The notes beneath the pieces were generated by a model. It was not told the origin of the DNA. It did no database searches and was given only the letters and a program-made list of their open reading frames with translations. Position numbers and translations under genes: made by a program. Positions 45,697 through 48,312 of a DNA stretch of 64,000 nucleotides are shown here, one piece after another; the stretch's first letter is position 1, and each line of letters starts with the position of its first letter. This stretch comes from a bacterium (GTDB lineage: Bacteria > Desulfobacterota > Binatia > HRBIN30 > CADEER01), in assembly GCA_019637795.1 (NCBI GenBank), contig JAHBUY010000003.1, positions 7,409-71,408 of the forward strand, in the 5' to 3' direction.

Positions 45697-48312
45697 ATGC
45701 CCGGCGGGGGATCGATGGGCGCCGCACCGCCGCATGCCGAAGACACCGCTGGCGACGTCGACGTGGTCGTCGTCGGCGCCGGCTTCGCCGGCCTGTACAT
45801 GCTGCACCGGCTGCGCCGCCTCGGATTCACCGCGGTCGGGATCGAGCAGGGCGACGACGTCGGCGGCACCTGGTACTGGAACCGCTATCCGGGCGCCCGC
45901 TGCGACATCGAGAGCGTCGACTACTCGTACAGCTTCGACCCCGAGCTGGAGCGCGAGTGGCAGTGGTCGGAGCGCTACGCTACCCAGCCGGAGATCCTGC
46001 GCTATCTCGAGCACGTCGCCGACAAGCACGACCTGCGGCGCGACATCCGCTTCGCCACCGGGGTCACCGCCGCGGCCTGGGATGCGGCGGCGCGTCGCTG
46101 GGACGTCCGCACCCATCGTGGCGACGCGCTGCGCGGCCGCGTCCTCGTCATGGCCACCGGTTGCCTGTCGCTGCCGAAGATCCCGGACGTGCCCGGCGTG
46201 GAGCGCTTTCGCGGCGCGACCTACTACACCGGCCGCTGGCCGCGCGCCGGCGTCGACTTCACCGGCCAGCGGGTCGCGGTCATCGGCACCGGCTCGTCCG
46301 GCATCCAATCGATCCCGATCATCGCCCAGCAGGCGGCGGAGCTGACGGTCTTCCAGCGCACGCCCAACTTCTCCCGCCCGGCGCACAACGGCCCGGTGGC
46401 GGCGGCGAAGCGGGCGGCGTTCGCCGCCGATCCGCGCGCCTACCGCCAGGCGGCGCGGCAGTCGCCGGCCGGCGTGCCGGTCGAGCGCACCCTGGCGCGC
46501 GCCCTGCAGGTGTCGGCGGCGGAGCGGCGGGCGGCCTACGAAGCGGCCTACGCCTCGGGCGACCTGCTCGCCTTCGGCAACGCGTTCGTCGACATCGGCA
46601 TCAGCCCGGACGCCAACGCCACGGTGGCCGAGTTCCTTCGCGACAAGATCCGCGCCCGGGTGCGCGATCCCGAGACCGCGGCGGCGCTCGCTCCGATCGA
46701 CCACTACTACGGCACCAAGCGGCCGTGCCTCGACACCGACTACTTCGAGACCTTCGACCTGCCGCACGTCCGTCTGGTCGACCTGCGCCGCGAGCCGATC
46801 CGCACCATCGCCGAGCACGGCATCGAGACGGCGGCGCGCGCCGTCACCGTCGACGCCATCGTCTTCGCCACCGGCTTCGACGCCATGACCGGCGCCATCC
46901 TGGCGGTGGACATCCGCGGCCGCGACGGCGCGGCGCTCGCCGCCAAATGGGCCGGCGGGCCGCGCACCTACCTCGGGCTGATGACCGCCGGCTTCCCCAA
47001 CCTGTTCACGATCACCGGACCGGGCAGCCCCTCGGTGCTGTCGAACATGGCGGTGTCGATCGAGCAGCACGTCGAGTGGATCGGCGACTGCCTGGCGCAC
47101 ATGCGGGCGCAGCGCCTGGAGGTCGTCGAGCCGACGCCGCTGGCGGAGGCGGGATGGGTGCAGCACGTCAACGACTGCGCCGACATCACCCTCTATCCGC
47201 GCGCCGACTCCTGGTACATGGGCGCCAACGTCCCGGGGAAGCCGCGCGTCTTCCTCCCCTACATCGGCGGCGTCGACCGCTACCGGCGCGCCTGCGACGA
47301 GGTGGTGCGGCGCGACTACCTCGGCTTCGCCTTCGACGGTCCGGGCGGCGCCCGCTGCCGCGACGGCGTCGTGCGCCGGCTGCAACCCGACGCGGCGGCG
47401 GTGATCGAGCTGATCGAGGAGCTGAAGCTGCCGCCCCTCGACACCCTGCCGGTGCCCGCGGCGCGCGCCGCCTACCTGGCCGGCATCGCCGGCCAGCCGC
47501 CGGGGCCGGCGGTCGGCGCGGTGGTGGACGGCACCTTCCCCGGCGCCGCCGGCCCGCTCGCCTATCGGCTCTATCGACCGGCCAGCCCGGGGCCGCATCC
47601 GATCGTCGTCTACTTCCACGGCGGCGGCTGGGTGCTCGGCGACAGCACGTCCGACGACGCCTTCTGCCGCGACCTGTGCGTGCGGGCCGACGCCGCCGTC
47701 GTCTCGGCCGACTACCGGCACGCGCCCGAGGCGCGCTTCCCGGCGCCGATCGAGGACGGCTGCGCCGCCGTGCGCTGGATCGCCGAGCAGGCGGCGGCGC
47801 TCGGCGGCCTGCCGGGACGGCTGGCGGTGTGCGGCTGGAGCGCCGGCGGCAACGTCGCCGCCGTCGTCTGCCAATTGGCGCGCGCCGCCGGCGGCCCGGC
47901 GATCGCCGGCCAGGTGCTGGTCGCCCCGGTCACCGACGCCGACCTCACCCGCGCCTCGTACCGCGAGAATGGCGCCGGCTACCTGCTCACCACGGCGCTG
48001 ATGCGCTGGTTCTGGGACTGCTATGCCGATCCCGCGGACCGCGGCGATCCGCGCGCCGCGCCGCTGCGCGCGGCGGATCTGACCGGGCTGCCGCCGGCGC
48101 TGGTGGTGACCGCCGAATTCGACCCGCTGCGCGACGAGGGCGCCGCCTATGCCGCCGCGCTCGCCGCGGCCGGCGTGCCGACGCGCCACCTCGCCTGCCG
48201 CGGCCAGATCCACGGCTCCATCCCGGCGGTGGACGTCATCATCTCGGCCAACGCCGCGCGCGCGGAAATCGGCGCCGCGCTGCGCGCCTTCCTCGGGCGT
48301 CCCGCGGGCTGA
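45697..48312 (+). CDS. fusion protein: Baeyer-Villiger/flavin monooxygenase (N) + alpha/beta-hydrolase fold-3 esterase (C), 871 aa
   Basis: The BVMO half has the FAD motif [10 protein letters not shown], the fingerprint [12 protein letters not shown] and the NADP motif VIGTGSSG. The esterase half has the oxyanion motif HGGGW, the nucleophile GWSAGG and a His near IHGS. There is no stop between the halves. Confidence 0.8.

Follow-up and report, generated by a model that had tools for sequence, protein, structure and literature searches.

A natural fusion of a Baeyer-Villiger monooxygenase and an HSL-family esterase in a Binatia genome

In the accepted subterminal route of alkane and methyl-ketone catabolism, a Baeyer-Villiger monooxygenase (BVMO) converts a ketone into an ester and an esterase cleaves the ester into an alcohol and an acid, with separate enzymes responsible for the two steps. 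An open reading frame (ORF) from a bacterium of the class Binatia raises the question of whether one polypeptide can do both. It lies in a window of 64,000 nucleotides (nt), meaning the whole stretch of DNA analyzed here, which spans positions 7,409 to 71,408 of the forward strand of contig JAHBUY010000003.1 (NCBI GenBank assembly GCA_019637795.1; GTDB lineage Bacteria; Desulfobacterota; Binatia; HRBIN30; CADEER01); coordinates are those of the window throughout. A first-pass annotation, made from the letters alone, described an 871-amino acid (aa) ORF uniting a complete flavin monooxygenase with a fold-3 alpha/beta hydrolase. The gene is confirmed as a natural, in-frame fusion of a complete BVMO and a complete esterase, and is not an artefact. 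Judged from sequence, its product is probably a bifunctional enzyme that would take a ketone through an ester to an alcohol and an acid, both activities and the use of the BVMO product by the esterase being predicted.

An uninterrupted and recurrent fusion gene

The gene and its main divisions are listed below. Residue numbers refer to an 865-aa protein unless the 871-aa numbering is stated; residues in the HMM match to PAMO and in the Pfam match follow the 871-aa numbering.

45487-45714, no strand: intergenic leader from the divergent AAA/DUF4143 ATPase gene to the fusion gene, including an in-frame extension (45511-45696), with third-codon-position guanine-plus-cytosine (GC) content of 0.62-0.74
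45715-48312, plus strand: whole fusion gene, 865 aa and TGA, delimited by identity to MBX3025270.1 and by third-position GC
45751-47349, plus strand: type I BVMO domain, PAMO-like, residues 13-545, from a full-length match to PAMO
47350-47394, plus strand: connector of 15 residues, 546-560, conserved and of fixed length, not low-complexity
47395-48300, plus strand: HSL-family (family IV, Abhydrolase_3) esterase domain with N-terminal cap, residues 561-862, from PF07859 and Est8 matches

The plus-strand frame is open from 45511 to 48312, and the ORF list and frame plot place its nearest in-frame stops only at 45493 and 48310. Translation from ATG 45697 gives the 871 aa first described, and that frame is indeed open; the most likely start, however, is ATG 45715, six codons downstream, which yields 865 aa. 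A Shine-Dalgarno-like run (GGGGGA) lies 4 nt 5' of ATG 45715, no such run precedes ATG 45697, and the 100% identical 865-aa GenBank protein MBX3025270.1 begins at ATG 45715. GC content around the gene is 0.70-0.75. At third codon positions the frame plot gives 0.62-0.74 upstream of approximately 45700 and 0.88-1.00 from there to 48250; since the upstream values are low, the extension 45511-45696 is probably non-coding, and a longer start at GTG 45511 was ruled out on the same evidence. A scan of 45380-48620 detected neither a sigma-70-type promoter nor an intrinsic terminator consensus. The entire gene is overlapped on the minus strand by an antisense ORF of 944 aa (45661-48495), which is most likely a shadow ORF of DNA of 75% GC, because the plus-strand frame holds both the third-position coding signal and the homology. 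As this antisense ORF exemplifies, ORF length alone is uninformative in DNA so rich in GC.

Continuity at the junction was judged from coding signal and recurrence. Third-position GC is 0.92-1.00 across the domain junction and stays at 0.96-0.98 through 47275-47500, so there is no change of frame where the halves meet, as the first-pass annotation had maintained. Independent genomes agree. A search of 5.8 billion proteins returned at least 120 clusters of relatives (68-100% identity, 96-100% query coverage, 844-917 aa), headed by the identical protein; 120 of these were used for the alignment and for all residue counts given here, and all 120 listed clusters carry precomputed BVMO-type and Abhydrolase_3 Pfam matches. 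When GTDB was scanned with each species represented by one genome, at least 80 full-length loci emerged from more than 600 candidate stretches, and in 79 of the 80 listed loci one stop-free ORF covers query residues from 60 or earlier to 830 or later. The refuting result named in the first-pass annotation, a stop or frameshift at the junction in independent reads, is answered by these loci with more force than by resequencing a single junction. Carriers among the listed loci belong to Acidimicrobiia, other Actinomycetota, Alpha-, Beta- and Gammaproteobacteria, Acidobacteriota and metagenome-assembled genomes (MAGs) labelled 'delta proteobacterium'; cultured carriers include many Bradyrhizobium species, Variovorax, Blastococcus, Pseudonocardia lacus, Desertimonas flava, Chelatococcus and Pseudaquabacterium. 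The residues D64, R336, W708, S709, D803 and H833 are each present in 120 of the 120 listed relatives, a sign that both halves are under selection. Two complete domains in one uninterrupted ORF that recurs in independent genomes are what defines a natural fusion, and this is what the query presents.

The sole interrupted fusion among the 80 loci occurs in an Acidimicrobiales MAG (locus L072, 7602-9818), with the break inside the esterase cap at approximately query residue 595. Since the break lies off the domain boundary, it marks a frameshift or a pseudogene, not a naturally split form of the gene.

The connector itself appears to be under constraint. In the 120-sequence alignment, the mean frequency of the majority residue is 0.80 for the connector, compared with 0.84 for both the BVMO half and the esterase core, and none of the 120 listed relatives has an insertion or deletion in residues 536-575. 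Being conserved and free of indels, the junction is a structured, constrained element and not a flexible low-complexity linker. There is a negligible chance that the fusion is a sequencing or assembly error in which neighbouring genes were run together through a lost stop or a shifted frame: high-GC DNA does give long spurious ORFs, the source is a MAG and one related locus is split, but the coding signal runs on over the junction, no spare sequence lies between the BVMO end and the esterase cap to hold a stop, a ribosome-binding site and a start, the junction length is fixed in every listed relative, the same single ORF recurs in cultured isolates, and the split falls away from the domain boundary.

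Two complete enzyme halves

Judged by homology, motif content and fold, the N-terminal half is a complete type I BVMO. A hidden Markov model (HMM) search against solved structures matched query residues 19-545 (871-aa numbering) to residues 15-540 of PAMO (PDB 1w4x) with an E-value of 1e-183; in the same search the BVMO half matched steroid monooxygenase at 4.5e-176 and cyclohexanone monooxygenases (CHMOs) at 1e-142 or weaker. Identity to PAMO is 55.7% over 524 residues, and Foldseek against the PDB gave target-normalized template modelling (TM) scores of 0.90 to PAMO 2yls and 0.88 to CHMO-type enzymes. The elements that define the class are as follows.

45775-45792, plus strand: flavin adenine dinucleotide (FAD)-binding Rossmann motif GAGFAG, residues 21-26
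45862-45906, plus strand: second BVMO motif, residues 50-64, with Asp64, which aligns with PAMO D66, as its last residue
46207-46242, plus strand: BVMO fingerprint, residues 165-176, placed by alignment, with Tyr171 (46225-46227) at the canonical His position (PAMO H173)
46285-46302, plus strand: NADPH-binding Rossmann motif GTGSSG, residues 191-196
46351-46368, plus strand: FQRTPN, following GTGSSG and containing the aligned equivalents of PAMO R217 and T218
46720-46722, plus strand: catalytic Arg336, aligned with PAMO R337, within YGTKRP (46708-46725), in 120 of 120 listed relatives
47017-47049, plus strand: active-site loop, residues 435-445, in which the PAMO-type two-residue bulge (S441; A442 replaced by V) and the M446 equivalent are kept

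Both Rossmann motifs, the catalytic Arg and Asp, full-length homology and the fold match that mark type I BVMOs are present, and the query sequence conforms to the second-motif pattern [A/G]GxWxxxx[F/Y]P[G/M]xxxD (Riebel 2012). Among the listed relatives G21, A22, F24 and G26 of the FAD motif are invariant, with G23 and A25 at least 90% conserved, and G191, T192, G193, S194, S195, R215 and T216 are invariant in the NADPH region. The PAMO active-site equivalents D66, I67, L153, R217, T218, K336, R337, P440, S441, L443, S444, M446 and W501 are all kept. The PAMO-like active-site loop suggests a substrate class of small aryl-alkyl or linear methyl ketones over cyclohexanone-type ketones.

By the same kinds of evidence the C-terminal half is a complete HSL-family (fold-3 alpha/beta hydrolase) esterase, with the HGGG motif, a GxSxG elbow and a Ser-Asp-His triad.

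47617-47631, plus strand: oxyanion-hole motif HGGGW, residues 635-639, with H635, G636, G637 and G638 invariant in the 120 listed relatives
47833-47850, plus strand: nucleophile elbow GWSAGG, residues 707-712, with Ser709 at 47839-47841 and with S709 and W708 in 120 of 120
48121-48123, plus strand: catalytic Asp803 within EFDPLRD (48115-48135), in 120 of 120
48211-48213, plus strand: catalytic His833 within QIHGS (48205-48219), in 120 of 120

The Pfam family PF07859 (Abhydrolase_3) matches residues 637-840 (871-aa numbering) with 248.4 bits against a cutoff of 25 (E-value 8e-74), and Est8 (PDB 4ypv) matches residues 559-856 at 2e-78. The closest named subfamily is LipP1 HSL (NCBIfam NF058653), whose model is covered in full (positions 1-300 of 300, residues 564-862) at 347.5 bits; this is marginally under the cutoff of 350, which makes the esterase half formally a non-member. 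The protein is likewise a non-member of the chloramphenicol hydrolase family NF033149 (252.8 bits, cutoff 500) and of the PtlE pentalenolactone D synthase family NF045818 (295.5 bits, cutoff 1100). The HMM searches that the first-pass annotation proposed as a check thus recover each half at full length, and every motif that it quoted, from the FAD and NADP Rossmann motifs and the fingerprint to HGGGW, GWSAGG and the His of IHGS, lies where it was placed.

A predicted two-step reaction and its alternatives

The protein is predicted to be one cytoplasmic polypeptide with two active enzymes. In the N-terminal half, FAD, NADPH and O2 would serve to insert an oxygen atom next to the carbonyl of a ketone, yielding an ester; in the C-terminal half, Ser709, Asp803 and His833 would cleave the resulting ester, releasing an alcohol and a carboxylic acid. 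The short, conserved connector of fixed length probably holds the halves packed in one defined arrangement. Fusion ensures that the two halves are expressed 1:1 and kept together, in the predicted scheme as two consecutive steps.

Other lineages that join the same two families lend weight to a working partnership. Two further BVMO-to-Abhydrolase_3 clusters were found (P0129 and P0160), with BVMO halves 50% and 44% identical and esterase halves 41% and 38% identical to those of the query, so that at least three separate 50%-identity clusters have the BVMO-to-HSL-esterase order. The reverse order, Abhydrolase_3 to BVMO, is represented by the P0122 cluster (851 aa), whose halves are 56% (BVMO) and 42% (esterase) identical to those of the query; it brings to at least four the clusters with the same HSL partner. 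Members of P0122 come from cultured Henriciella species (e.g. WP_018148110.1), Thalassovita mediterranea and Tara Oceans metagenomes, where the reverse-order protein is encoded by a stand-alone gene on one scaffold (locus L081, 5861-8416). This cluster is a separate fusion event or permutation. That these two families have been joined more than once, and in either order, counts as classic Rosetta-stone evidence of cooperation between them.

PAMO-like BVMOs are also found with other partners, namely an Abhydrolase_1-type hydrolase (P0136, 831 aa), a tandem glyoxalase/VOC-like region (P0187, 843 aa) and an N-terminal region of approximately 210 residues (P0166, 741 aa). These three keep the fingerprint His, unlike the HSL fusions.

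The packing of the halves was modelled with AlphaFold2 on the family alignment, which gave a mean predicted local distance difference test (pLDDT) score of 85.7 and a predicted TM (pTM) score of 0.84 for the whole 865-residue chain. Only residues 51-55, 436-444 and 495-509 fall below a pLDDT of 50; they correspond to cofactor-dependent, mobile active-site loops of BVMOs, for which low values are expected. For a chain of 545 plus 320 residues, a pTM of 0.84 suggests one preferred domain packing. Channelling of the ester from one half to the other, as put forward in the first-pass annotation, is a putative property for which this value and the conserved fixed-length junction are indirect support. 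A more demanding form of this proposal is unlikely: a rigid bifunctional enzyme in which the product exit of the BVMO would face the acyl pocket of the esterase, the ester would be handed over without bulk equilibration, and Tyr or Phe at the fingerprint His position would be a hinge adaptation to the packing. Were it true, channelling in a Baeyer-Villiger cascade would have its first natural example, on which engineered fusions could be modelled. Foldseek against the PDB aligned no more than approximately 550 of the 865 columns (query-normalized TM at most 0.57), and the PDB sequence search gave single-domain chains only, so that neither search turned up a solved structure of such a fused protein.

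Several observations weigh against a consecutive ketone-to-ester-to-alcohol enzyme. The central His of the strict fingerprint FxGxxxHxxxW[P/D] (Fraaije 2002) is Tyr171 in the query. A full-text literature search found neither activity data nor a characterized member of the fused family. In the window, the gene has no alcohol dehydrogenase or hydroxylase beside it and stands alone among housekeeping genes, and no neighbours conserved beyond genus level or across phyla emerged when those of the 80 loci were clustered. Mutation of the fingerprint His reportedly impaired other BVMOs. Finally, the alignment given to AlphaFold2 is deep and of low diversity (68-80% identity), by which the inter-domain confidence is possibly inflated.

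In favour of the proposed reaction, the subterminal alkane and ketone route is a precedent for the two steps in this order. No obvious pathway partner was seen in the whole 64-kb window, where the only short-chain dehydrogenase/reductase (SDR) is 36 kb away. Near the fusion, an SDR dehydrogenase, a further point for the proposed pathway, occurs in 9/80 loci and an enoyl-CoA hydratase also in 9/80, and the Bradyrhizobium loci have a LigB-type dioxygenase and a type-B carboxylesterase nearby. Because no neighbour is conserved beyond the genus, the physiological substrate cannot be read from context.

If the order of reaction were different, both halves could be active and still not act as proposed: the esterase might first unmask an esterified keto or hydroxy compound for oxidation by the BVMO, or the halves might serve different substrates and be fused only for co-regulation or stability. 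The existence of both domain orders is consistent with this, since no vectorial N-to-C hand-off is then required, as are the lack of a conserved pathway context and the fusion of BVMOs to the non-esterase partners described above (Abhydrolase_1-type and glyoxalase-like). It is nonetheless unlikely. At least four 50%-identity clusters have a partner from this one HSL esterase family; esters, the product class of BVMOs, are the substrate class of that family; and separate BVMO and esterase pairs acting in product-hydrolysis order are documented, for example the 4-sulfoacetophenone BVMO with the 4-sulfophenylacetate esterase and the subterminal pathway.

The consecutive order would also be retained with a cyclic ketone as the substrate, in which case the BVMO product would be a lactone and the C-terminal half a lactone hydrolase yielding a hydroxy acid, as in cyclohexanone and cyclopentanone catabolism. 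PMC6563810 speaks of 'a lactone or ester product', and CHMO-type enzymes are strong structural matches. This version is quite improbable, as the closest characterized relatives are PAMO and steroid monooxygenase and not CHMOs by the E-values given above, and as the esterase half matches HSL lipase/esterase families, with no lactonase family among its HMM matches. Moreover, the two-residue bulge in the 440-446 loop is kept; this PAMO-type feature is not known from CHMOs.

A change at the fingerprint might instead have altered or abolished Baeyer-Villiger chemistry, leaving a heteroatom (S or N) oxygenase, an NADPH oxidase or a non-catalytic scaffold for the esterase. The replacement is real, as first noted, and with it the strict motif is lost; it is also usual in this group of proteins. 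At this position the 120 listed fused relatives have Tyr in 85, Phe in 24, His in 6, Thr in 2 and Trp, Cys and Ser in one each. For comparison, the BVMO half alone was searched exhaustively against 1.84 billion 50%-identity representatives, among which 98 unfused full-length relatives with a detected motif were identified. His occurs in 64 of these 98 PAMO-like representatives and the other 34 are variable (M, Q, N, R, Y, F and others); among the seven closest, two have His and the others M, Q, N, M and R. Tyr for His is therefore the norm of the clade, is common in the nearest unfused BVMOs and is no mark of oddity for this gene. Loss of the chemistry is highly improbable, given that the remaining catalytic and cofactor residues show no variation in 120/120 relatives, which is unexpected for a decayed domain, and that the position varies in over a third of unfused representatives. 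In the PAMO structure the position is situated in the inter-domain linker, away from the flavin.

Among the HSL-fused representative clusters, none of four has the fingerprint His (W, V, F and F). The 0/4 against 64/98 pattern is suggestive and is confounded by phylogeny. A specific tie between His loss and fusion was considered and dropped as a firm claim, with 6 of the 120 fused relatives keeping His and five of the seven closest unfused relatives lacking it. A lineage effect is the simpler explanation, because those six fused members keep His and many unfused neighbours are without it. The strict fingerprint is consequently an unreliable criterion of membership in this subclade, in view of the fused and unfused counts. 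Genome-mining studies have used FxGxxxHxxxW[P/D] as a filter, and strict-fingerprint screens miss most of the clade, since most of its members fail the motif.

Surroundings and comparison with known systems

The fusion gene lies between the divergent AAA/DUF4143 ATPase gene (44299-45486, minus strand) and the gene of a secreted PD40/dockerin-like protein. The wider surroundings hold gatA, gatB and genes for a pyridoxal phosphate (PLP) enzyme and an acyltransferase upstream, and hemB, cobA/hemD, cytochrome c assembly and sirohaem genes downstream. The following features were noted around it.

48531-50561, plus strand: directly downstream, a predicted 676-aa protein with a hydrophobic N-terminus and weak PD40 beta-propeller matches
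50562-51494, plus strand: Cys-rich DUF7107-repeat protein gene, next after that of the 676-aa protein
51912-52898: hemB, in a haem/sirohaem cluster
52984-55389, minus strand: fusion gene of a tetrapyrrole methylase (CobA-type) and uroporphyrinogen-III synthase (HemD), in the same cluster
56728-57546: cytochrome c assembly protein, same cluster
57547-58374: sirohaem synthase N-terminal domain protein, same cluster
3093-5321, plus strand: Cas4-Cas1 fusion gene (Pfam Cas_Cas4 and Cas_Cas1), another natural fusion in the window
5538 to approximately 7900: CRISPR (clustered regularly interspaced short palindromic repeats) array, after the Cas4-Cas1 gene
13929-25915, minus strand: exopolysaccharide-type cluster
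26603-27325: NusG-like gene, after the exopolysaccharide-type cluster

The 676-aa protein carries two near-identical C-terminal modules, CVGDC[S/N]G..VT[I/V]DDLIRMVNIAL...CLAGDANCDC.ITV..II.AVNNSL, which look dockerin- or EF-hand-like and have Thr/Pro-rich linkers between them. In the CRISPR array, 33 copies of the 36-nt repeat CCTTCCGCGGCTGAACAGCCGCGGCCTCATTGAAGC are spaced 70-75 nt from start to start. The exopolysaccharide-type cluster encodes a GT4 glycosyltransferase, a Polysacc_synt flippase, a sulfotransferase, a Bac_transf priming transferase and a Wzz-like chain-length determinant.

The fusion is an ordinary member of an already recognized and widespread architecture and is unsurprising to a specialist; the novelty implied at first was overstated. 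Its novelty is limited, since the literature already mentions the architecture and GenBank already contains the identical protein. Relatives are annotated by JGI as 'CzcO/acetyl esterase/lipase'. Other public records hide the oxygenase half under 'alpha/beta hydrolase fold domain-containing protein', and some records of the reverse-order P0122 proteins read 'potassium transporter'. The interest of the protein lies partly in application. Cascades of a BVMO and a hydrolase have been built artificially for biocatalysis, turning ketones or fatty-acid-derived esters into alcohols and acids, an area in which fusions are designed largely empirically. PAMO is the thermostable workhorse of the BVMO field. 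A natural fusion with a PAMO-like oxygenase half, a rigid conserved junction and both domain orders in nature represents a ready-made design, and orthologues in cultured Bradyrhizobium, Variovorax, Blastococcus and Henriciella make the idea testable.

Each half of the protein resembles known enzymes. With PAMO from Thermobifida fusca (1W4X, 2YLS) and steroid monooxygenase (4AP3) it shares full-length type I BVMO homology; it differs from PAMO in the replacement of His173 by Tyr, Q152 by Cys, A442 by Val and H220 by Asn, and in the esterase of approximately 320 residues appended at its C-terminus. With the HSL esterases Est8 (4YPV), EST2 (1EVQ) and LipP1 (NF058653) it shares HGGG, the GxSAG elbow, the Asp of DPLRD, the catalytic His and the N-terminal helical cap. 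Unlike these, its elbow reads GWSAG (Trp in 120/120 relatives) and not GDSAG, GTSAG, GESAG or GCSAG, and its esterase domain is not free-standing.

As a whole, the protein matches the two-gene catabolic pairs of BVMO and esterase in chemistry, from ketone through ester to alcohol and acid, whereas those pairs are separate polypeptides encoded in substrate-specific operons and the query is one polypeptide that has no operon context in this genome. The Henriciella reverse-order fusion (P0122) likewise combines the same two families in one polypeptide and lacks the fingerprint His (Val), and is set apart by its inverted domain order and a different junction. The only statement on natural fusions that the literature search found is by Aalbers and Fraaije (2018; PMC6563810): with reference to van Beilen et al. 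2003, they mention in one sentence natural BVMO-esterase fusions, known from genome analysis, in which the esterase could hydrolyze the BVMO product. These fusions are like the query in design, a BVMO joined to an esterase that could act on its product.

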